This document shows, one piece after another, positions 4,609 through 46,198 of a stretch of DNA of 46,658 nt (the stretch's first letter is position 1; every line of letters begins with the position of its first letter). The notes beneath the pieces were generated by a model. It searched no databases. It had not been told where the DNA came from and was given only the letters and a program-made list of their open reading frames with translations. Source of the stretch: Candidatus Levyibacteriota bacterium (GTDB lineage Bacteria > Patescibacteriota > Microgenomatia > Levybacterales > UBA12049); NCBI GenBank assembly GCA_963716145.1, contig OY970292.1, positions 1,095,404 to 1,142,061 of the forward strand, written 5' to 3'. Made by a program: the position numbers and the translations under genes.

Positions 4609-8433
<3,825 letters not shown>

Positions 8434-8521
8434 TTCAGAGTTTAGAGTTCAGAATTAAGAATTAAGTTTTTAAATAATACTTAAAAATTCTAAATTCATA
8501 ATTATAGATTCTGAATTTAAA
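8434..8521. repeat. Two opposed 7-nt-period arrays in the rpoC-rpsL spacer
   Basis: Array 1 at 8434-8468: TTCAGAG TTTAGAG TTCAGAA TTAAGAA TTAAGTT. Array 2 at 8487-8521: ATTCTAA ATTCATA ATTATAG ATTCTGA ATTTAAA. The second is roughly the reverse complement of the first (about 24/31 by hand). Confidence 0.8.
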
Positions 8522-12787: not shown

Positions 12788-12795
12788 ATGCGAAA

Positions 12796-12889
12796 ATTTC
12801 TAATTTCTAATTTCTAATTTCAAAAGATTAAACTTAGCCTTAAAATAATTAGAAATTTGATATTTGAAATTGGTATTTATTTGAAATTT
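12796..12889. repeat. Opposed 7-nt-period arrays in the divergent promoter region
   Basis: (ATTTCTA)x3 plus ATTTCAA at 12796-12823. TTAGAAA TTTGATA TTTGAAA TTGGTAT TTATTTG at 12849-12883 is in the opposite orientation (AATTAGAAATT versus AATTTCTAATT). Confidence 0.8.
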
Positions 12890-14455: not shown

Positions 14456-15006
14456 TAAAAGAAATATATTTTGTATGGTGGTTTTTTGCTCCGGCCGGAA
14501 TAGCCAACATTGCAGCTTTCTTTTCAGGTAAAATTCCCCTCCTTAAATCCTATTCTTACCCAATTGATTTCAACGTCAAAGTTAGAGGTAGAAGAATTTT
14601 TGGATCCAATAAAACAATGCGCGGATTAATTTTTGGAATAATTTCGGCAATAGCCATTGTTTACTTGCAAGTATTTTTATTCAATCAATTTGCTTTCATT
14701 AAAAAAATTATCCCTTTGGATTACAATTCGATAAACCCAATTCTTCTTGGTGGTCTTGCAGGTTTTGGTGCTCTATTTGGTGATGCGCTTAAAAGTTTTT
14801 TTAAACGCCAAATAGGAGTAGAACCGGGAAGGAGTTGGTTTCCTTTTGATCAGATCGATTATATCCTGGGAGGAATATTATTCACCTCATTCTATATAAA
14901 CTTAAGCAGGGGAGAATATGTTACACTGCTTTGGGTTTGGTTTTTACTTCACCCTCTAACTACATTGCTGGGATATGTCTTCAAACTCAAAGACAGCCCG
15001 CTTTAG
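14452..15006 (+). CDS. CDP-archaeol synthase (CarS, DUF46) family CTP-transferase homologue
   Basis: PAGIANIAA...GSNKTMRGLIFG...GDALKSFFKRQIGVEPGRSWFPFDQIDYILG matches the CarS pattern (G-x-KT-x-RG, GD...SF-KR, DQ-D). It overlaps the lipid kinase stop by 4 nt (ATGA). Confidence 0.7.
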   Translation: MIKEIYFVWWFFAPAGIANIAAFFSGKIPLLKSYSYPIDFNVKVRGRRIFGSNKTMRGLIFGIISAIAIVYLQVFLFNQFAFIKKIIPLDYNSINPILLGGLAGFGALFGDALKSFFKRQIGVEPGRSWFPFDQIDYILGGILFTSFYINLSRGEYVTLLWVWFLLHPLTTLLGYVFKLKDSPL

Positions 15007-15035
15007 TATAAAGTATTAAGAAGTAAGTATAAAGT
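15007..15035. repeat. 7-nt-period array, 5' arm flanking the four-helix-bundle gene
   Basis: TATAAAG TATTAAG AAGTAAG TATAAAGT fills the whole gap between TAG (15004-15006) and ATG (15036). Confidence 0.8.
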
Positions 15036-15410
15036 ATGAACGGATCTAAAATAAAATCTTTTACAGATCTCATTACTTGGCAAAAAGCACATGCATTAGT
15101 GCTTATTATATACAAATTTACAAACGCATTCCCTAGAACAGAGACTTATTCATTAATTGATCAAATGAGAAGATCAGCTATTTCAATAACTAGTAATATT
15201 GCGGAGGGATTTTCTAGAAAAAGTAAAAAAGAAAAAATGCAATTTTATTATATGGCCCTTGGATCTACTACAGAGCTTCATAGCCAATTGATATTGTCAA
15301 AAGACTTGGGATATTTAAAGCAAGCAGAATTTTATGGAGTTATAGAAAAAATAGTTGAAGTAAATAAATTAATAAATAGTTTAATTAAGAGTTCTCAAAG
15401 TTATACTTAA
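15036..15410 (+). CDS. Four-helix-bundle protein (23S rRNA intervening-sequence protein / Avd-like family)
   Basis: FTDLITWQKAHALVLIIYKFTNAFPRTETYSLIDQMRRSAISITSNIAEGFSR...ALGSTTELHSQLILSKDLGYL is the typical family signature; 124 aa. Confidence 0.85.
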   Translation: MNGSKIKSFTDLITWQKAHALVLIIYKFTNAFPRTETYSLIDQMRRSAISITSNIAEGFSRKSKKEKMQFYYMALGSTTELHSQLILSKDLGYLKQAEFYGVIEKIVEVNKLINSLIKSSQSYT

Positions 15411-15440
15411 TACATACTACTTTATACTTAATACTTTATC
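15399..15440. repeat. 7-nt-period array, 3' arm flanking the four-helix-bundle gene
   Basis: TACTTAA TACATAC TACTTTA TACTTAA TACTTTA. ACTTTATACTTAATACTTTAT is the reverse complement of the 5' arm apart from a 7-nt gap. Confidence 0.8.
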
Positions 15441-16383
15441 ATTTGTCCGTTGAGTATTTTAGAGGGAAACGTACATTATTTTCATCCGGACTTTTTGGAT
15501 TGTGGGAAATATTTATCATCAGATCAGCAAGAAATCCCGTAAAGAATATTTGAAGGCCTGTAATGAAGAATAATGCGCCAAAGATAAGTAGCGGTCTATC
15601 ACCAATTGACGAACCTAGGAAGTGTAGATAGCTCAGATAAGCTAAAAGTACAAAGCCCACAAATGCAAATAAGCCTCCTATGAATCCAAAGAAATGTAAT
15701 GGTCTTTTGCCAAATTTTATTAAAAAGATTACAGTGAATAAGTCAGGAAGATTTTTCCATACTTTAGAGAAGCCATACTTGGACTTGCCAAATTTTCTTG
15801 CATCATGCTCTACTACTACCTCATCAACAATAAATCCTTGTTGGTACAGGAGTAGAGGAATAAAACGATAGAGGCCTCCATAAATATGCAGACTTTCTAT
15901 TGCTTCTTTAGTGAACAATTTAAAACCGCAATCAATGTCGTGAATTTTTAGACCAAATAAAATCCTGTTAAGATAATTAAAAAACTTTGATATAATTATC
16001 ATTTTGGATTTATCTTTGCGCACACGTCTCCAACCGACAACAACATCAGCTCCTTCTCTATGTTTTTCAATAAGCTTGCGAAGCTCTGAGGGTTTGTCCT
16101 GTAAATCAGCATCCATCGTTATCAGGACTTCACCCGCAGCAACAGAAAACCCCAGAGCTAGAGCATCAGCCTTGCCGCGGTTTCTTTTAAAAGAATACAC
16201 TGAAGTAAGTTTATCTTTTTGCGCGAAAGATTTGAGAATTTCGAGAGAGCGGTCTGTGGAGCCGTCATCAATAAAAACAATTTCTACTTCTTCTTTAAGC
16301 GAAGATAAAACCTTCTTCAACTCGATATGAAACGCTTTAAGGCTATCTTCCTCATTATAAACAGGGACAACAATACTTAACAT
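15439..16383 (-). CDS. GT2 polyprenol-phosphate glycosyltransferase (DPM1/GtrB-like) with C-terminal TM helices
   Basis: MLSIVVPVYNEEDSL...VFIDDGSTDRS...TMDADLQD, plus two C-terminal TM segments. The start is moved to ATG 16383 because the upstream 24 codons belong to a repeated hairpin element. Confidence 0.8.
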   Translation of the reverse strand: MLSIVVPVYNEEDSLKAFHIELKKVLSSLKEEVEIVFIDDGSTDRSLEILKSFAQKDKLTSVYSFKRNRGKADALALGFSVAAGEVLITMDADLQDKPSELRKLIEKHREGADVVVGWRRVRKDKSKMIIISKFFNYLNRILFGLKIHDIDCGFKLFTKEAIESLHIYGGLYRFIPLLLYQQGFIVDEVVVEHDARKFGKSKYGFSKVWKNLPDLFTVIFLIKFGKRPLHFFGFIGGLFAFVGFVLLAYLSYLHFLGSSIGDRPLLIFGALFFITGLQIFFTGFLADLMINISHNPKSPDENNVRFPLKYSTDK

Positions 16384-16706: not shown

Positions 16707-16728
16707 GTTTATTTAATAGAATCAGGAA

Positions 16729-18753
16729 TCATGAATTAGGGATTGTTTTTTTAAATTTTAGATAGATTAATCCCGTGAGTATTATAACTAAAGAAGTTAA
16801 ACTTATTATAACACCAATATCGACCCATTTTTGAGGCGTGTAATAAACTTCAAAGCTGTAATTTCCGGTCTTTGGTAAAATAAAACTATTAAACCCTTCG
16901 TAGTTCTTGGTTCTTGGTTCTTGGTTCTTGGTTCCACGAAGACTCCATCCAGGATCATAACCTTCAGCAAATACTAAAGTGCTATTTTTTTGTGCATTTT
17001 TTAAATTAACAATATATTTTGTTGGATTAATATATTTATAGTCTATTTTCATGTTTGGTTGGGGGCTCCAGAAGTGATCTTTGGGATCAGTAACTTCATA
17101 AACCCCGATCCTACCAAATCCATCAATTCTCTTTAGCCAAGGGATAGAATTTATTTCTTTTAATGTTTCTAGATATGATTTTTCATCGTACTTTCTATCC
17201 GTGAGGAAAATTTCCCCCATGCTGTCGTAAGGAACAATTATATATTTAACAGATGCTTCTTGTAGCACCTTTAAGGTTTCCCCTTTTTTTAATATTGCTA
17301 TATCTTCTTTGGGTGAATTTAATTTGAATAAGTCATTTGCAGGAATTGATGGATGATTATTTGAAAAGAAAGCAAACCTTTGTATTTGCGGGATCCAGAT
17401 CGTTCTATAAAACTTTTTATCTGAGGAAATAAATTTTTCTAATTTTATATATTCATTGGGAATTTGTACAGATTTAAATGTTCCCCCGAGTTCGCCAAGT
17501 AGGGCAGGGGAAGTAAGAAGTAAGAAGTAAGAGGTAAGAAGTAAGATGAAAAGATTTTGAAATTTGAAATTTGAAATTTGAAATTTTTGTTGAACCTTCA
17601 ACCAATTATATATTTGGGAAATGCTGTAGGGAATTAGTATTGAATAAGAAATGGCAATCAACGTATACCATTTTGTTGGATCTCTGAACATTAAGAAGCC
17701 TGGAACATGTTCAAACAGCCATAGATATAAGCCGCCAAATGGCTCCTGAGCTCCTTTTGCTAGAAAAGCACCTATCAGGCCCAAGATGGCAAAATACAAT
17801 AAATTGTTTTTGGTTCTCTGGTCTTTGGTTTTAGTAATAAAAAAAAGACTGCTAAATGCTAGAATTGGTAGAGTTAAAAATTCAGGTTTCATGAAATATG
17901 TTTTACCAAAAATATTCTCAGGCCAGTTGGGATGTAAAAGAGAAATTGTATTTTCGAGCTTTGCAAAACTGAAAAATTTTACAGCATCAATTGAGGAGTA
18001 AGCAGAACCCAGTTTTTTAATAGGATTTTGATTAACTAAAACTGTCGGTAAAATCCAAAAGAAGTTAAGAAGTACTAAGGTAGCTAATGGGGTTAGCAGC
18101 GATAAAATATATTTTAATGGCTTTCTAAATTGCTTGGTTATGAAGAAATAAATTATAAGCGCGGTTATCGTAATGTATAAAAACCGGATATCAAAAATAG
18201 CCTCAATACTTAAAGCTAATCCTAAGGATAATAATTTTTTAAATTCTATTTCGTTAGAGTCAAAAATATCAATAAAAATACTTAGTATCAAAGGAGAAAG
18301 AGCATAAGCCATCGCCACTCCTAATATCTGTCCACCTCCTATAACCATCAGGATATATATGTTAAATGTGTAAATAAAAGCCGCCAAGAGAGAAAAATCG
18401 TTTTTCGGCATTATTTTTTTATAAAGTGTGATTGATGAATAAATAGAAATAATTAGCAGTGGGAATAAATAATATATTCTTTCAATAACGCTCCAATGCA
18501 GGCCCAAGAATTCGCCTAAGAAAGTTATGGGAATACCTATGTTAAAAAATATCCATAACAAGGGAGCTGAAAATGCTCCCATACCCATCCCCAAATTCAT
18601 ATCCCATGCATAAAGAGGAAATGAATAGAGGGGATACATTGATTTATAATAAGGCCAGAAATCACCTCCTGTAATAACTCCAGGCAAAAACCACGGACTA
18701 TATACAACATAGATAATGAGTAAAGAAATAAAGTAATAAATTTTTGTTTTCAT
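16729..18753 (-). CDS. Large polytopic membrane protein, GT-C-like glycosyltransferase candidate, with C-terminal extracytoplasmic domain and terminal TM
   Basis: 674 aa. About 12 or more hydrophobic helices are followed by a soluble ~250-aa domain and a final TM. The N-terminal GGDFWPYY loop resembles the acidic first loop of GT-C enzymes. Architecture-based call. Confidence 0.4.
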   Translation of the reverse strand: MKTKIYYFISLLIIYVVYSPWFLPGVITGGDFWPYYKSMYPLYSFPLYAWDMNLGMGMGAFSAPLLWIFFNIGIPITFLGEFLGLHWSVIERIYYLFPLLIISIYSSITLYKKIMPKNDFSLLAAFIYTFNIYILMVIGGGQILGVAMAYALSPLILSIFIDIFDSNEIEFKKLLSLGLALSIEAIFDIRFLYITITALIIYFFITKQFRKPLKYILSLLTPLATLVLLNFFWILPTVLVNQNPIKKLGSAYSSIDAVKFFSFAKLENTISLLHPNWPENIFGKTYFMKPEFLTLPILAFSSLFFITKTKDQRTKNNLLYFAILGLIGAFLAKGAQEPFGGLYLWLFEHVPGFLMFRDPTKWYTLIAISYSILIPYSISQIYNWLKVQQKFQISNFKFQNLFILLLTSYFLLLTSPALLGELGGTFKSVQIPNEYIKLEKFISSDKKFYRTIWIPQIQRFAFFSNNHPSIPANDLFKLNSPKEDIAILKKGETLKVLQEASVKYIIVPYDSMGEIFLTDRKYDEKSYLETLKEINSIPWLKRIDGFGRIGVYEVTDPKDHFWSPQPNMKIDYKYINPTKYIVNLKNAQKNSTLVFAEGYDPGWSLRGTKNQEPRTKNYEGFNSFILPKTGNYSFEVYYTPQKWVDIGVIISLTSLVIILTGLIYLKFKKTIPNS
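16903..16937. repeat. (GTTCTTG)x4 heptad array inside a CDS
   Basis: GTTCTTG x4 then GTTCCAC. On the coding strand it gives ...NQEPRTKNYEGF. Confidence 0.9.
17511..17584. repeat. (AAGTAAG)x5 and (TTGAAAT)x4 heptad arrays inside a CDS
   Basis: 17511-17545: AAGTAAG x5 (one AGGTAAG). 17557-17584: TTGAAAT x4. They encode ...KFQISNFKFQNLFILLLTSYFLLLTS... in the minus-strand ORF. Confidence 0.9.
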
Positions 18754-29805: not shown

Positions 29806-31026
29806 TCAATGTTGCAATATAACCTTTTTTATGAGCCTAATGCTTTCTTTTACCGAATTTTCCCAAGTAGCAGTCTTTACTGCTTTCAATCCGTTTTCCT
29901 GAAGGTTTTTATACTTGGATTTATCATTTATGAGTTTTACCGCCTCAGAATACAAACTTTGTGGAGTATTCTTATCAAGAATAATGCCCGTCACATTGTC
30001 TTGAACAGTATCGCGCAGTCCTGGAACATTATACACAATTGACGGAGTCTTTTGGGAGGCTGCTTCATGAACTGTTAATCCCCATCCTTCGTGAACGGAA
30101 GGAATAAGCAATATATGCGCTTTTGCCAATAATTCATATTTTCTTTCCTGATTTACAAACCCAAAAAACTTAACTGAAGAAGACAGATTGTATTTTTGTA
30201 TTTTTGATTTAACAGATCCAATAATTTCGTCATCTCCCGATCCCACAATCCACAGGACGGGTTCTTGGTTCTTGGTTCTTGGTTCTTTGGTCTTGGTTCT
30301 TGGCTCTTTGGAGCTACCAGGATCTAAGACCTTTGAGCTAAGATCTTTCTTAATCAAGGAGAATGCTTCAATGGCATCATAGATTCCTTTTTGTTTATTA
30401 AGTCTTGCAAGATAGATAAAAGTAGGATTTTTTTCTTTAGGATATTTTTTAAGACTTTTTGGAATATTTATTCCCATTTTTAATACAGTTATTTGGCTCG
30501 GATTTATCCCTTCTTTAATTAAATCTTTTTTGGTTGACTCAGAAATAGTCATTGTCGGCACGTTTCTGTAAATACGCAAATATATTTTTTCAATTGCTCT
30601 AAAAATAAGTGCAACCGGATAGGGGAACAATCTGAAAAATAATTTGCTTGCAGTCTCACAGATCAGAGCGATAGTCTTTTTGCGGGCATAAATTGCGCTG
30701 AAAAATGGAAACCAGTGCACCTCATCGATGATGATGTCTATATTTTTTTTGTTTTTTAAATAATAAAAAAAAGCCAAAAAATGAACATTCCACCAATCTC
30801 CTCGTCTTATAAACTGAACACTGTCAATAGTCTCCTTTTTTTTTGCTCCCGAGAACATTGAACTAAAAACCAAGACCTCGTACCCTGCATTGGTCCATCC
30901 CTTAGCTAATTCATGAGTAAGAATTTCAGCACCTCCTCCTGCCGGATTTTTTATATCCCGCCAGTTCAATATTAAAATCCGAACGATTTTAGTATTGAAG
31001 TTCTTGGTTCTTGGTTCATGGTTCAT
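29806..31026 (-). CDS. GT4 family glycosyltransferase carrying heptad-array-derived N-terminus and interdomain insert
   Basis: Core ILILNWRDIKNPAGGGAE...SVHEGWGLTVHEAASQKTPSIVYNVPGLRD. The N-terminus MNHEPRTKN and the linker SSKEPRTKTKEPRTKNQEP are encoded by GTTCTTG-type arrays. Confidence 0.85.
   Translation of the reverse strand: MNHEPRTKNFNTKIVRILILNWRDIKNPAGGGAEILTHELAKGWTNAGYEVLVFSSMFSGAKKKETIDSVQFIRRGDWWNVHFLAFFYYLKNKKNIDIIIDEVHWFPFFSAIYARKKTIALICETASKLFFRLFPYPVALIFRAIEKIYLRIYRNVPTMTISESTKKDLIKEGINPSQITVLKMGINIPKSLKKYPKEKNPTFIYLARLNKQKGIYDAIEAFSLIKKDLSSKVLDPGSSKEPRTKTKEPRTKNQEPVLWIVGSGDDEIIGSVKSKIQKYNLSSSVKFFGFVNQERKYELLAKAHILLIPSVHEGWGLTVHEAASQKTPSIVYNVPGLRDTVQDNVTGIILDKNTPQSLYSEAVKLINDKSKYKNLQENGLKAVKTATWENSVKESIRLIKKVILQH
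30261..30311. repeat. Seven-copy GTTCTTG-type heptad array inside the GT4 interdomain linker
   Basis: GTTCTTG x3, GTTCTTT, GGTCTTG, GTTCTTG, GCTCTTT. Confidence 0.9.
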
Positions 31027-31072
31027 AATTGCTTGAGCGTATTCCTAAGACCCAAGATCAAAGATCTACGAC
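31000..31072. repeat. Opposed heptad arrays with only a 17-nt centre (empty version of the four-helix-bundle cassette site)
   Basis: 31000-31027: GTTCTTG GTTCTTG GTTCATG GTTCATA, which contains the GT4 start codon. 31045-31072: CTAAGAC CCAAGAT CAAAGAT CTACGAC, which contains the GT2 stop codon. The second arm uses the same four words as 33517-33544. Confidence 0.8.
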
Positions 31073-31842
31073 CTTTTTTGTTTATTATAATATCTTAGGA
31101 TTTTTAATCTGTAGAATACCGCTCCCGTATCCCAAAGCATCAGAAAAATAACTTTCCACATAGCATTTCTATTGATTGTATTTGTTTTGAATTTTAAACG
31201 GATAGGGGCTTCATAAATTTTTTTATAGCCGAGAAGATAGGACACAGCCAATATCTCAATATCAAAAGCGTAAGCTTTCACCAATAATCTCGGAAGAACA
31301 TCTCTGACAACTTTTCTTTTGAAAAATTTAAGTCCTACCTGTGTGTCTCTTACTTTAAAACCAAATAATGCTTTGGTTACCTGCCGATACCCCCAAGATA
31401 AAATTTTTCTATACAAAGGATAATTAACTTTGGATACCGGGTGCAGTTTGGAGCCTACAATTATATCCGCGTCGTACCACTCCATATGGTTAAGAAGCAT
31501 ATTAAAACCGGCCGGATGAATATCCATCCCTGCATCCATAAATCCTATTATGTCGCCTTTTGCTTTTAACATACCAATCCGTACCGCATGCCCTTTTCCT
31601 TGATTTTCTTCATAAGAAATAATCTTTACATTTTTTCCGGCCCTAAGCTTTTTGATGCCGGTTAATTTCTTAAGTGTGTCATCAACCAACCCGTCAATCA
31701 CTACGATTATTTCATATTTGTAGTTCAGGGTATCTAGTGAGCTTGTGATATTTTTAATATCTTGGATAATTGTCTTTTCTTGCTTATATGATGGTACAAC
31801 TACTGAGAGAAGGCGTATTTTAGAGCTTTTCCTTGCTGCCAT
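31066..31842 (-). CDS. GT2 family glycosyltransferase
   Basis: MAARKSSKIRLLSVVVPSYKQEKTI...VVIDGLVDDT...GFMDAGMD. The start is chosen at the second ATG (31842). Confidence 0.8.
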   Translation of the reverse strand: MAARKSSKIRLLSVVVPSYKQEKTIIQDIKNITSSLDTLNYKYEIIVVIDGLVDDTLKKLTGIKKLRAGKNVKIISYEENQGKGHAVRIGMLKAKGDIIGFMDAGMDIHPAGFNMLLNHMEWYDADIIVGSKLHPVSKVNYPLYRKILSWGYRQVTKALFGFKVRDTQVGLKFFKRKVVRDVLPRLLVKAYAFDIEILAVSYLLGYKKIYEAPIRLKFKTNTINRNAMWKVIFLMLWDTGAVFYRLKILRYYNKQKRS

Positions 31843-33088
31843 ACAGGTAGTATAACAAAAGACTGAGCACAAGTAAAAATGTAATAGCGCAAGAGATAAG
31901 GATAATCTGCATAAATGTTTGATGGTAAAAAGTAATAAGAATTATTTGTAAAATAGCACCCAAAAGAATCGGAATATAAACATTAGTTTTTTTAATAGAA
32001 AGATAGAAATTGGAAATCATAAAAAGTAAACAGTAAATAGATATAAATAGTGCAAAAAAACCTAGAATTGGAGCAACAGACAAATACTCTGTTTTTTTGA
32101 GAAAAAATAATATAGAAAACGCGGGAAAAAGATAATAAAAAATTGTTACGATTATACAAGGGCACAAAACAAGGAGTAGGGAGAGTTTAAAGGTGTTATT
32201 AAAATTTTCGTTCCTGCTGTGTTTTTGAACAATCACCGGAAACATGACTCCGATGATTGGTACTGTTATAAAAAATATAACTCTGCCCATAAGCGATAAT
32301 CCTGCATAGATTCCAGCAGACTTGGGATCAAAAAAATGCTTTACTAAGATCACATCTGTTGAGATAAATGAAGTTAAACCAAGCAAGGTCAGAGCTGATG
32401 GAATACCGTAGTTAAAAAGTTCTCTTGTATTTATGCTGGACTGCGCAATCAACTTTTTATTAAAAATAAATCTAATTGGCAGGAAACTTAAAATATACAA
32501 AATTAATGAGCCAATTATTATTGCTGAGATAGCTCCTGTCACTGAAAAACCCATAAATACAAATGCTACGCCAAGTGTTAGTTTTGCCAGAGCTCCAATA
32601 AAATTTAGAAAAACCTGGTAACCAAATGCTAACTTTGCCTGAAGCAATGCCAAATTTATTATTTGGACAAATGACAAAAATATCACAAAATTCGCCAGTA
32701 ACAGGATGATTTTATTTTCAATATGAAAAAAGCTTGCTAAATTGGGAGTAAAATAGAGAAAAAGTAGAAATATAAATAGTCCTGATGAGGCGAAGAATTT
32801 AAATATTTTTATATAAAATCCTCTTATTTCGGCAAGTTTTCCTTTTGCAAAATATTCTCCCGAAAAACTTACAACCAAAGGAGTTAATGCGCTTAATATC
32901 AGAGAAGGAAATCCAATTAAAGAAGTAATACTTGCCAAAGTACCATAGTCAGCAACTGTCAAATTACGGCTCATAAATAAGTTAAAGAGGAAATTGAAAA
33001 AATTGGCTATCAATCCACCAATTACCACGATACTTGATCCGTAGATAAGAGGGTGCCGGGCTTGAGTTTTTAAAGTTGTAAAGTTCAT
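31820..33088 (-). CDS. Wzx/MOP-superfamily oligosaccharide flippase
   Basis: 422 aa, about 12 TM helices, with the typical polysaccharide-biosynthesis-protein N-terminus (...GSSIVVIGGLIANFFNFLFNLFMSRNLTVADYG). Confidence 0.7.
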   Translation of the reverse strand: MNFTTLKTQARHPLIYGSSIVVIGGLIANFFNFLFNLFMSRNLTVADYGTLASITSLIGFPSLILSALTPLVVSFSGEYFAKGKLAEIRGFYIKIFKFFASSGLFIFLLFLYFTPNLASFFHIENKIILLLANFVIFLSFVQIINLALLQAKLAFGYQVFLNFIGALAKLTLGVAFVFMGFSVTGAISAIIIGSLILYILSFLPIRFIFNKKLIAQSSINTRELFNYGIPSALTLLGLTSFISTDVILVKHFFDPKSAGIYAGLSLMGRVIFFITVPIIGVMFPVIVQKHSRNENFNNTFKLSLLLVLCPCIIVTIFYYLFPAFSILFFLKKTEYLSVAPILGFFALFISIYCLLFMISNFYLSIKKTNVYIPILLGAILQIILITFYHQTFMQIILISCAITFLLVLSLLLYYLYGSKEKL

Positions 33089-33091
33089 AGA

Positions 33092-33493
33092 TTAGGTCTT
33101 GGTTTCTAGGTCTTGGTTTCTAGGTCTTTGGTCTATTGTATTTTTTTTAAGATAAGTAATTAGTCCATTTATTAGTCTGCCTGTTTTATTTGCTTGTTCC
33201 ATTAGTTCTTGATATTTTTGTTCGTCAATAAAATCTAAGTCTCTAGCCAATAATAAATGATATTTAGTTTCCTCCAAGGATCCTCTAGCTTGATAGCAAT
33301 ACTGAACATATTCTTTTCTATAAGCTCTCGCACTTCCTTCAACTAGGTTGGCTGCTACAGAACTTACAGAGCGGCATACTTGATCAATTAATCTAAATTT
33401 TTCATCATTTGGAAATATATTTACAATTTTGTATATCATCAACACTAGCTTATGCGCCTCTTTCCATGCTTCCAGCTTTTCAAAATTATTCAT
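33092..33493 (-). CDS. Four-helix-bundle protein (23S rRNA intervening-sequence protein / Avd-like family), second copy
   Basis: MNNFEKLEAWKEAHKLVLMIYKIVNIFPNDEKFRLIDQVCRSVSSVAANLVEGSAR...ARGSLEETKYHLLLARDLDFI. The C-terminal tail DQRPRNQDLETKT is encoded by the heptad array. The ORF track starts at upstream TTG 33511. Confidence 0.85.
   Translation of the reverse strand: MNNFEKLEAWKEAHKLVLMIYKIVNIFPNDEKFRLIDQVCRSVSSVAANLVEGSARAYRKEYVQYCYQARGSLEETKYHLLLARDLDFIDEQKYQELMEQANKTGRLINGLITYLKKNTIDQRPRNQDLETKT
33095..33136. repeat. Heptad array (14-nt unit GGTCTTG GTTTCTA x2.5), 3' arm of the second four-helix-bundle cassette
   Basis: GGTCTTG GTTTCTA GGTCTTG GTTTCTA GGTCTTT GGTCTAT. Confidence 0.85.
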
Positions 33494-33516
33494 TATTTTG
33501 TAATTATTCAAAAAAA

Positions 33517-33547
33517 CAAAGAACTAAGATCTACAATCCAAGAACTC
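33517..33547. repeat. Heptad array in opposite orientation, 5' arm of the second four-helix-bundle cassette
   Basis: CAAAGAA CTAAGAT CTACAAT CCAAGAA. Its reverse complement matches 33095-33120 at about 19/26. It contains the stop codon of the upstream GT4 gene. Confidence 0.8.
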
Positions 33548-34616
33548 GCTGATACGTTTTTATCGTATCAGCGGCTGTTTTCTTCCACGTAAATTTTTGA
33601 GCTTGTTCGAGTCCTTTTTCCGAGAGCCGCGTTCGCAGTTTGGAATCTTCAAAAACTTCAGCAATACCATCAGCAATGCTTTTTATATCGTACGCGTCTA
33701 TGTAGAATGCTGCATCTCCAGCTACTTCGCGAATAGATCCTTCTTTGGAAGTTACAACCGGGCAGCCGGATTGCATTGCTTCAAGAATTGGCAAACCAAA
33801 GCCTTCATACAGGCTTGGCATTGCAAAGACAGTTGCAAGATTATAAAGAGTAATTAAATCCTCAGTGGGAACAAAACCCAATGCGCGCGTATTGGTATTT
33901 TCTGAAATTAGTTTTTGCGCTTCTACCAAATCCTGATTCCAGGGATTTTTCTTATCAAAATTGGTCTCGGTTAAAGTTTTTCCAACCATCACTAAGGGAG
34001 CATTTATTTCATTTGCCGCTCGGATAAGTCTTGGAAGGTTTTTGTTCCAAGTTGCGTCACCAACGTACAGGACAAATTTGGGGGGAAGTTTGTATTTGGT
34101 TTTTAGTTCTTGGATCTTAGTTTTTGGGCGACCGTTCTCCGAAGATCTATGATCTAAAACCTGGAATTCTTTTCCTGCTGCAAGATATACTACATCAATT
34201 TTATCGGCATTGATCTTTGCGTATTTGCTAATGTCTTTTTTTGATGATTCCGAATCAGTCAGAATCCGGTCAGATCCTGAAAGATTGAGCTTTTGAATCT
34301 GCCACTTAATTTTGCCTTTAAAGCCCGATGGGAAATGGTCTGGAAATACCAGAGGAGTTAGGTCGTGTACCGTAACAACTTTTTTATATTTTTCAAAAAA
34401 GGGGAGTGTCAAAAAAAACGGTTCAAAATAGGGATAGTGAATTAATTCAACTGATTTATCAAGTTGCCCCCCACTCGAAAAGAAAATATACTCATTCTCA
34501 GGAAAAAATTCTAAAAGCGCATTCTTGAGATTTTGCAGATAAAAGCCTGTTCCGCGCACTCTGTGACTTAAGATTCTATTATCGTTAAGCGGTGATACAT
34601 CTATAGCTATTTTCAT
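33531..34616 (-). CDS. GT4 family glycosyltransferase
   Basis: FAMPSLYEGFGLPILEAMQSGCPVVTS (EX7E region); 361 aa. A degenerate heptad-like stretch at about 34088-34135 encodes SENGRPKTKIQELKTK. Confidence 0.85.
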   Translation of the reverse strand: MKIAIDVSPLNDNRILSHRVRGTGFYLQNLKNALLEFFPENEYIFFSSGGQLDKSVELIHYPYFEPFFLTLPFFEKYKKVVTVHDLTPLVFPDHFPSGFKGKIKWQIQKLNLSGSDRILTDSESSKKDISKYAKINADKIDVVYLAAGKEFQVLDHRSSENGRPKTKIQELKTKYKLPPKFVLYVGDATWNKNLPRLIRAANEINAPLVMVGKTLTETNFDKKNPWNQDLVEAQKLISENTNTRALGFVPTEDLITLYNLATVFAMPSLYEGFGLPILEAMQSGCPVVTSKEGSIREVAGDAAFYIDAYDIKSIADGIAEVFEDSKLRTRLSEKGLEQAQKFTWKKTAADTIKTYQRVLGL

Positions 34617-41988: not shown

Positions 41989-42426
41989 TTATCGGGTTTT
42001 TATCTCTCTTTTGTTGTCTCCCAGATATTCAAAATATAAATTTATTCTTTTTTTTGGTAGGATTTTCTCAATCTTTTCCGGCCATTCTATGGCTACTATG
42101 TTTGATTTATCATTTAAAATTTCTTTAAGTCCCAATCCCTCAACGTCTTTTTCGCTCTCTATTCTATAAAGATCTATATGGTAAAAATTCTTGATTCTTG
42201 ATTCTTGCTTCTTAATTCTTATGTCATATTTCCGGACAATTATAAAAGTAGGTGAAATAATTTTGCTTTTGATTCCCAAACCCTTTGCAAATCCTTGAAC
42301 GAATGTTGTTTTACCGGATCCCAAATTTCCATATAGAGCAAGAGTCGATCCACTTTTTAGATTTTTTCCTAAATTAAATCCCAATTCCTGAGTCTCTGAA
42401 AATTTATTAGTTTTGTGGATTTGCAT
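41989..42426 (-). CDS. tsaE: tRNA threonylcarbamoyladenosine biosynthesis ATPase TsaE, with a heptad-array insert
   Basis: [24 protein letters not shown]...[10 protein letters not shown]...YHIDLYRI. The start is taken at MQIHKTNKF (42426). Confidence 0.85.
42187..42221. repeat. ATTCTTG-type heptad array inside tsaE
   Basis: ATTCTTG x3, CTTCTTA, ATTCTTA. It encodes [12 protein letters not shown] between the SPTF and HxDLYR motifs. Confidence 0.9.
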
Positions 42427-46076: not shown

Positions 46077-46088
46077 GTTTCAAAAAAC

Positions 46089-46197
46089 AATTTTTAATTT
46101 TCAGTTCTCAATTTTCATTGAATTTTCAATGACTAAATGTTTAAAAATTAAAACATTGTGATTTGATTGAAAATTGTAAATTTCAAATTGAAAATTA
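46089..46197. repeat. Opposed 7-nt-period arrays upstream of ftsE
   Basis: 46096-46130: AATTTTC AGTTCTC AATTTTC ATTGAAT TTTCAAT. 46160-46197: GATTTGA TTGAAAA TTGTAAA TTTCAAA TTGAAAA, in roughly reverse-complement orientation. Confidence 0.75.
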
Positions 46198-46198
46198 C

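Follow-up and report, generated by a model that had tools for sequence, protein, structure and literature searches.

The stretch of DNA analysed here, 46,658 nt of a Candidatus Levyibacteriota bacterium and referred to as the window, carries a polysaccharide operon on its minus strand. Within it, the genes for an epimerase, a family 4 glycosyltransferase (GT4a, 33531-34616), a small four-helix-bundle protein, a Wzx-type flippase (31820-33088), a family 2 glycosyltransferase (GT2) and a second family 4 glycosyltransferase (GT4b) follow one another. The small gene is enclosed by two opposed arrays of 7-nt units, and gene and arrays together form the cassette considered below (cassette 2, 33,092-33,547). 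A paralogue, cassette 1, is located elsewhere in the window. The coordinates of these features are collected in Table 1. The open reading frame (ORF) of cassette 2 matched Pfam PF05635, “23S rRNA-intervening sequence protein”, with E=2.5e-34 (118 bits against a cutoff of 33.8) over the full profile (positions 1-106 of 106), and NCBIfam TIGR02436, “four helix bundle protein”, with E=3.7e-32 (110.8 bits against a cutoff of 24). With both curated cutoffs passed, it is assigned by profile as a full-length member of this family. It is also related by sequence to a pentameric four-helix-bundle structure, PDB 2GSC (E=8e-15), and to 2RLD (E=3.8e-5), while its start ATG at 33493 agrees with the N-termini of 182 homologues. 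As the initial annotation had described, the gene is wedged between GT4a and the flippase: 37 nt (33494-33530) separate the GT4a stop from the ATG, and the flippase ATG (33086-33088) lies 3 nt past the stop of the small gene (gap 33089-33091). No Shine-Dalgarno-like motif was found in the leader 33494-33509, and promoters or terminators that the cassette might own showed no excess over expectation in the region.

Table 1. Positions of the cassette, its surroundings and related features in the window
Feature	Positions	Strand	Basis or remarks
Four-helix-bundle gene (S23p / 23S rRNA intervening-sequence protein family)	33092-33493	minus	133 aa; PF05635, TIGR02436
3' arm, 14-nt (2x7) tandem array TAGGTCTTGGTTTC x2.6 plus decayed units	33093-33144	minus	Tandem Repeats Finder (TRF), inverted repeats I1/I2
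5' arm on transcript, degenerate heptad array	33510-33546	minus	sense strand reads AGTTCTTGGATTGTAGATCTTAGTTCTTTG...
A/T-rich leader between 5' arm and ATG	33494-33509	minus	read from sequence
GT4 glycosyltransferase (GT4a), upstream operon gene	33531-34616	minus	Pfam Glycos_transf_1, E=1.7e-32
Wzx-type polysaccharide flippase, downstream operon gene	31820-33088	minus	Pfam Polysacc_synt_3 / Polysacc_synt; synteny
Paralogous cassette 1	15002-15452	plus	four-helix-bundle ORF 15036-15410; phmmer E=7.5e-26
Gene-less opposed heptad arrays (GGTCGTAGATCTTTGATCTTGGGTCTTAGG, 17-nt loop, ATGAACCATGAACCAAGAACCAAGAAC), GT2/GT4b junction	30994-31075	minus

Both arrays were found to overlap coding sequence. 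The downstream array is built of the heptads GGTCTTG/GTTTCTA, which form a perfect 14-nt tandem repeat at 33093-33128 (2.6 copies, TRF, 100% match) and decay toward 33136-33144. Its reverse complement supplies the 13 final codons and the stop of the ORF, giving the tail IDQRPRNQDLETKT* (also given as DQRPRNQDLETKT), so that array and translation agree with the earlier proposal that units at 33095-33136 encode the C-terminal tail. The upstream array at 33517-33547 reads CAAAGAA CTAAGAT CTACAAT CCAAGAA CTC, the same reading as had been obtained before. It closes the reading frame of GT4a, whose C-terminus ...VLGL* is encoded there and whose stop, TAG, appears as CTA at 33531-33533, inside the array as proposed. 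The gene does lie between opposed arrays, and the arms are inverted: those returned by the repeat finder (33108-33144 and 33510-33546) are 37 nt long, 365 nt apart and complementary at 27 of 37 positions (73%); the hand alignment had given about 19/26. A second register, shifted by 14 nt, is equally good. In the predicted transcript of either window cassette, the arms pair around the ORF in both the minimum free energy and the centroid folds. Fold energies of whole cassettes were not significant against shuffles for either of the two, and the terminal stem alone is informative.

In cassette 1, located where two convergent genes meet, between their stop codons, the arms at 15005-15037 and 15403-15435 (AGTATAA / TTATACT) are 33 nt long, 85% complementary and 365 nt apart. 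The proteins of the two cassettes are 38% identical. The distance between the best-scoring arms is exactly 365 nt in both (15005-15435; 33108-33546), which probably reflects the conserved length of the ORF rather than a measured distance. A comparison of the two cassettes and their flanks for conserved ends, as the initial annotation had suggested, revealed none: the alignment of cassettes 1 and 2 with the syntenic cassettes of relatives is confined to the ORF and to that part of the 5' arm which codes for GT4. Cassettes 1 and 2 have a 7-nt period and TAR cores in common and not their ends, and the shared ends of miniature inverted-repeat transposable elements (MITEs) or of REP doublets forming hairpins (REPINs) are thus not seen. 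The suggested search for target-site duplications likewise yielded none; protein identity to the nearest empty sites amounts to only 55-59%, so that the boundaries of the element cannot be fixed to the base. Regarding the earlier view of two independent cassettes with one topology and different repeat words, the layout and the differing words stand, while the cassettes are paralogues and not unrelated inventions.

Complementarity of the arms and their stop codons

The match between the two arms of cassette 2 was compared with several backgrounds. The best ungapped inverted score was 12.5 (p=0.004 when compared with 1500 positions of equal geometry in related loci), and the arm duplex has a free energy of -23.6 kcal/mol (p=0.016 against shuffles). 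Thirteen period-7 arrays exist in the window, at a threshold giving 0-2 arrays for periods 4-13. Among 190 array pairs of the window the arm pair of cassette 2 ranks 15th (8%) and that of cassette 1 2nd, and the upstream arm 33510-33546 pairs equally well with three other GTTCTTG arrays of the window. Against the arms of unrelated cassettes, p=0.063 was obtained for cassette 2, whose own 3' partner ranks 6th of 75. Identity in register is 0.80, against 0.76 after a shift of 7 or 14 nt; since it is nearly unchanged, the match lies in the repeat words and not in the exact position. The question had been raised whether the complementarity exceeds that between any two AT-rich heptad arrays. For the single cassette the answer is borderline (p~0.06-0.08), and the evidence for an arm match above chance comes from the family survey described below, not from cassette 2 alone.

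A pattern scan of one genome per species gave 80 loci encoding relatives (41-75% identity) in Patescibacteria, Clostridia/Bacillota, Chloroflexota, Nitrospirota, Omnitrophota, Bipolaricaulota, Elusimicrobiota, Planctomycetota and others. It can be observed by eye that in nearly all loci heptad arrays immediately precede the start codon and complementary ones cover or follow the stop codon, in words that vary from locus to locus (TAGATCG/CGATCTA, GGGTAAG/CTTACCC, GCTATTA/..., AGTATAA/...). Arm statistics were calculated for 75 usable cassettes, namely 73 surveyed loci and the two of the window. The median inverted-arm score was 15.5 against 7.0 in same-geometry controls, and 71% of the cassettes exceeded the 99th percentile of the controls. 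Within loci the mean score was 15.3, compared with 8.0±0.3 when 3' arms were permuted among loci (z=24; reached in 0 of 5000 permutations). A cassette's own partner was the best of 75 in 23 cases and among the best four in 50. Median arm identity was 0.83 in register, 0.69 at the best shift of 7 or 14 nt and 0.27 out of phase, with clearly register-specific inverted repeats making up half of the cassettes. In the TAGATCG group (L010-L035), the change between TGTTAGA/TCTAACA and TGATAGA/TCTATCA has a compensatory look. Complementarity far above that of permuted pairings bears out the idea of a structural rule rather than chance, and the bracket of inverted arrays is very probably a real trait of the family. 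In two Bacillota loci, L049 (~2200-2720) and L061 (~4930-5450), a complete local hairpin, array plus complement, stands on each side of the gene, so that local and long-range pairings would compete there.

The arrays also share a polarity with respect to translation. On the sense strand, units of the 5' arm follow the pattern TA[AG][GA][T]NN, and a spacing of 7 nt separates one TA[AG] triplet from the next in 111 of 169 cases. As 7 cannot be divided by 3, a run of three units is enough to close every frame. Such closure was found for 61% of 5' arms in sense and 51% of 3' arms in antisense direction, as compared with 28% of 5' arms in antisense, 19% of 3' arms in sense and 5% of random 45-mers. 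The stops face ribosomes arriving from outside, on either strand. In eight loci with a GC content of at least 50%, 22 and 24 stop triplets were counted on the inward-facing strands where 5.9 would be expected, an excess of about 4x that is not an artefact of AT-richness. It is suggested, tentatively, that three-frame stops have been selected since they may enable the element to occupy the ends of genes while avoiding fusions and preserving coupling.

Insertion states and arrays away from the gene

The operon epimerase-GT4a-flippase-GT2-GT4b is conserved among relatives, and three of its junctions differ in their state. The GT4a/flippase junction contains the cassette in the window and in the loci L001 and L005, and is empty in the eight loci L081-L087 and L089, where the GT4a stop overlaps the flippase ATG (ATGA-type) or abuts it without any array. 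The term “cassette” in the initial annotation was therefore apt. With three filled and eight empty orthologous sites, the type of evidence used for transposable elements, the cassette is an insertion relative to the orthologous operons. At the GT2/GT4b junction a gene-less hairpin is present in the window and L001, a cassette in L002, L006 and L015, and neither in L081-L085 and L005. The epimerase/GT4a junction has no cassette in the window but carries one in L037 and L040. Orthologous junctions occur in three states: naked, with a gene-less array hairpin, and with a hairpin containing the gene. It is fairly probable that gain and loss affect, or once affected, the element as one piece.

The cassettes of the window, L001 and L005 have the 5' arm GTTCTTGGnTnnTAG in common. 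The four-helix-bundle protein of the window is 75% identical to that of L001 and 63% to that of L005, whereas five neighbouring proteins reach 36-67% and 33-59%, respectively. It is thus the best conserved protein of the operon and is under purifying selection; since it is better conserved than its neighbours, the gene is taken to be kept by selection. In L001 (5378-5460) the N-terminus of the flippase (MIQEPTSKIQ…) is encoded by the 3' array of the cassette, and the stop of the four-helix-bundle gene overlaps the flippase ATG (ATGA), a stop-start overlap preserved through the insertion. Adjoining the 5' arm of cassette 2, the last GT4a codons hold a perfect 10-bp palindrome (CGCTGATACG, 7 nt, CGTATCAGCG; 33547-33573) with a terminator-like score on the antisense strand, of which the syntenic L001 and L005 have partial versions only.

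Embedding in gene strings is widespread in the survey. Of 56 cassettes, 48 are preceded by a co-oriented ORF (100 codons or longer) that terminates no more than 110 nt upstream. The stop codon of this ORF falls within the 5' arm in 26 of the 48 and is never found past the arm, and co-oriented downstream ORFs mostly start 1-30 nt past the 3' arm. A co-oriented GT4, GT2, flippase or epimerase homologue was located within 300 nt in 25 of the 80 loci, from many phyla. In clostridial loci the gene is repeated, with 3-4 copies placed at consecutive junctions between flagellar-rod, fabZ and Wzz/Wzy genes (FlgG, FabZ and Wzz/Wzy, each junction with a copy). Three or four co-oriented four-helix-bundle genes per 5 kb were noted in L025 (352-5345), L016 (2590-5345) and L031 (1189-4263); L025 and L016 are from Clostridia, with the copies among flagellar rod, fabZ and Wzz/Wzy-like genes.

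Heptad arrays were also found away from the gene. In the gene-less hairpin at the GT2/GT4b junction of the window, the GT2 stop is located in the first arm, and the second holds the GT4b ATG and an N-terminal extension (MNHEPRTKNFNTK). Further solo hairpins, with an RNA fold z of about -2 each, were seen at 8429-8503, 12788-12879 and 46088-46198; one lies between the end of rpoC and rpsL, one between divergent genes (12788-12879) and one between two minus-strand genes. Inside coding sequence, an array at 30254-30312 forms a 24-aa in-frame insert in GT4b (…SSKEPRTKTKEPRTKNQEP…) and another at 34089-34122 a 7-aa in-frame insert in GT4a (NGRPKTK). Each insert is missing from six orthologues, and both resemble palindromic elements that insert in frame into genes. 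Additional arrays within ORFs are situated at 16717-16746, 16893-16941, 17502-17593 and 42180-42232 (in a 674-aa protein without a Pfam match and in TsaE); that at 17502-17593 consists of adjacent arrays, GAAGTAA x5 and TTTGAAA x4, which are not mutually complementary. In 36.7 kb of empty-site relatives (L081-L087, L089) no period-7 array was detected, while loci with the four-helix-bundle gene have about 2.9 per 10 kb, 160 of 269 being away from any such gene.

Likeness to rRNA intervening sequences and competing explanations

The closest likeness is to the intervening sequences (IVSs) of 23S rRNA that carry an S23p ORF in Leptospira, Coxiella burnetii and Brucella, where the same protein family is found in the loop and the distribution is also patchy. 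The IVS of C. burnetii measures 428 nt, carries the S23p ORF and is closed by a 28-bp terminal stem cut by RNase III; directly before the ATG stand 2-3 tandem GACAGAT heptamers, of which the first marks the 5' cleavage site, and the copy number varies among strains by one heptamer (PMC4990558). As read from the published sequence, the GACAGAT repeats give TGA every 7 nt. The cassette of the window is of similar size (~430-455 nt) and likewise has terminal inverted repeats closing a stem around the ORF and tandem heptamers before it, although its stem is weaker than the near-perfect one of Coxiella. IVSs reside in 23S (or 16S) rRNA genes, at helix 9, 25 or 45, whereas the window cassette is flanked by the coding sequences of two polysaccharide genes: nowhere in the window does an Rfam family score above threshold, and a crude string search found no 23S motifs in the 80 loci. 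Moreover, its arms also provide stop, tail and start regions for neighbouring genes, unlike those of IVSs, and its ORF is well conserved while that of Coxiella appears to be decaying. With family, stem and heptamers shared, the cassette has the anatomy of an IVS, though outside rRNA, and is likely to be homologous in kind.

Other known systems are less similar. Avd of diversity-generating retroelements has a homologous four-helix-bundle fold, with weak matches to Pfam bAvd and NCBIfam DivGenRetAVD, below curated cutoffs. An assignment to such retroelements was rejected: DivGenRetAVD scores 42.5 bits against a cutoff of 80, the neighbours are GT4 and the flippase, with no adjacent reverse transcriptase, and no long direct repeats that could form a template/variable pair exist within 900 nt. 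A defence system was also rejected, there being no PADLOC match, as was an integron gene cassette, since repeats flank the ORF on both sides instead of forming a single 3' attC with a nearby integrase/attI, and the neighbours are operon genes in conserved synteny. Rickettsia palindromic elements (RPEs), REPINs and MITEs are similar in their hairpin-forming inverted arms, their presence or absence at orthologous sites, their in-frame copies inside ORFs and the gene-less copies scattered in the genome. Unlike them, the window elements have arms built of tandem 7-nt arrays, with words that vary from copy to copy and no family consensus, a conserved gene occupies the loop of a subset, and neither RAYT nor a transposase was seen among the proteins scanned. 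The short tandemly repeated repetitive (STRR) sequences, reportedly described by Mazel and colleagues in 1990 and Elhai and colleagues in 2008, are said to be dispersed tandem heptamers, often intergenic and of unknown function; they are cyanobacterial, whereas the organism of the window is a Patescibacterium. Small palindromic insertion elements in general are treated in PMC3116915. Contingency loci such as neuO and HMW1A have 7-nt tandem units at the ends of surface-glycan genes, as the window does, but the arrays here are degenerate, form inverted pairs and contain stop codons.

The explanation we favour, and consider moderately probable, is that of an IVS-type insertion cassette which resides in an mRNA operon and not in 23S rRNA, consisting of an S23p/PF05635 gene enclosed by inverted 7-nt arrays. 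The operon would be transcribed as one RNA, in which the arms would pair into a mismatched stem of ~25-37 bp (~-24 kcal/mol) that loops out the ORF. RNase III may then cut the stem, as in the IVSs of Coxiella and Leptospira, separating the upstream and downstream messages and releasing that of the four-helix-bundle protein. By analogy with those IVSs, the stem could be an RNase III site of the operon transcript, a step for which our confidence falls slightly short of even. The stops in three frames would allow the element to rest on gene ends, with no fusion proteins formed and translational coupling unbroken. Several observations weigh against this explanation. The arms of cassette 2 are weak (73% complementary) and not register-specific, and the fold energy of its whole transcript is not better than that of shuffles (z=+0.4). 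The ORF extends 27-40 nt into its own 3' arm, so that translating ribosomes would melt part of the stem. In L005 the gene is retained and the 3' arm lost, indicating that this arm is not essential, and for the solo hairpin between divergent genes (12788-12879) a single transcript is unlikely. Furthermore, arm mismatches on the sense strand show no excess of G:U over A:C (53 against 61). An RNA stem under selection would normally display such an excess. The constraint may be strand-symmetric, at the DNA level, or the arms may turn over by whole units.

This last point fits the main rival, a mobile element acting at the DNA level, in which the arrays would form the hairpin ends of a palindromic element (MITE/REPIN/RPE-like) that is non-autonomous and depends on factors in trans for its movement or generation; the gene would be loop cargo or a maker or maintainer of arrays, and RNA pairing a by-product. 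Presence, absence and solo-hairpin states at the same junctions agree with it, as do the solo hairpins outside operons, the in-frame inserts in GT4b and GT4a that orthologues lack and the co-occurrence of arrays with the gene. It remains unlikely in our judgement. The two cassettes of one genome have no terminal sequence in common, no target-site duplication is seen, and transposase or recombinase is absent among the proteins scanned. One protein, P0039, occurs in identical form on 22 contigs, always in one context, which does not support recent mobility; viral contigs gave a single weak match (34% identity), which does not support carriage by phage; and the syntenic cassettes are old, their flanking genes being 33-67% identical. 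The high conservation of the protein within the operon would also suit a domesticated regulatory module, in which the protein binds its own heptad stem, as RNA or DNA, and tunes how long same-strand gene strings, for surface polysaccharides and otherwise, are processed, how stable they are or how their translation is coupled. The 25 of 80 loci near co-oriented polysaccharide genes and the successive copies in Clostridia are in accord with such a role. Avd, a relative of the protein, is a pentamer that binds nucleic acid and protein (PMC10053308), and nucleic-acid binding by the four-helix-bundle protein may, as a guess, be supposed on that analogy. The module is nevertheless improbable, given that orthologous operons function without the gene and that the Coxiella ORF is apparently untranslated and decaying (PMC4990558). 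In addition, repeat words differ between paralogous cassettes of one genome, for which reason any recognition would have to be structural.

The position of the arrays at the ends and starts of sugar-polymer genes, and a 7-nt unit that shifts the frame, bring to mind phase variation, by which slippage-prone arrays would switch glycosyltransferase and flippase frames and the small gene would be incidental. Heptanucleotide repeats act so elsewhere (neuO, HMW1A), and Coxiella strains differ by one heptamer. The arrays are, however, mostly degenerate, and inverted pairs are tied to one gene family across phyla. No polymorphism in unit number was found, the arrays showing no difference among 11 population samples from the species that carries P0039, and the 5' arms hold stops in all frames, with no read-through; on these grounds phase variation is very improbable. 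Finally, two arrays of the commonest word family might flank a small gene by coincidence in a heptad-rich genome. The rank of cassette 2 (15th of 190), the equal matches of its 5' arm to three other arrays and the cross-cassette p=0.063 would permit this for one locus. At the family level coincidence is refuted by the bracket with locus-specific words in 71% of 75 cassettes; cassette 1 ranks 2nd of 190 and the orthologous L001 and L005 share the 5' arm, leaving this explanation next to no credibility for cassette 2.

Meaning for the protein family

The protein family and the rRNA IVS are already known. To our knowledge, no function is known for the very large family PF05635/TIGR02436, of which structures have been solved, and we know of no account of the origin of rRNA intervening sequences in more than 30 years. 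In the literature searched, the coverage of which is incomplete so that a prior description is possible, no description was found of the stem-plus-heptamer bracket around non-rRNA members across phyla. Nor, within the same incomplete coverage, was there one of the stop-per-heptad polarity or of the series of naked, solo-hairpin and filled sites; among the full texts, likewise incompletely covered, heptamers were mentioned only in the Coxiella IVS paper.

The results point to a common origin of the protein family and the rRNA IVS, as two manifestations of one element whose rules are simple and can be checked: the 7-nt arrays are inverted, each unit has one stop that faces ribosomes from outside, and a gene sits in the loop. 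A bolder and rather doubtful extension is that the rRNA IVS may represent just the part, resident in rRNA, of a very widespread element, in which a four-helix-bundle gene occupies the loop of a hairpin made of inverted heptad arrays and which colonises same-strand operon junctions, often of surface-polysaccharide genes, in a dozen or more phyla. Its arms would serve as three-frame translational insulators, and the protein would make, maintain or read the arrays. A protein tied to the arrays in this manner would explain why gene-bearing genomes are littered with solo heptad hairpins, some of them in frame within proteins, while relatives lacking the gene at the operon show none. For annotation, the odd C-terminal tails, N-terminal extensions and in-frame low-complexity inserts (EPRTKN-like) of neighbouring proteins reflect array read-through, not the biology of the enzymes.

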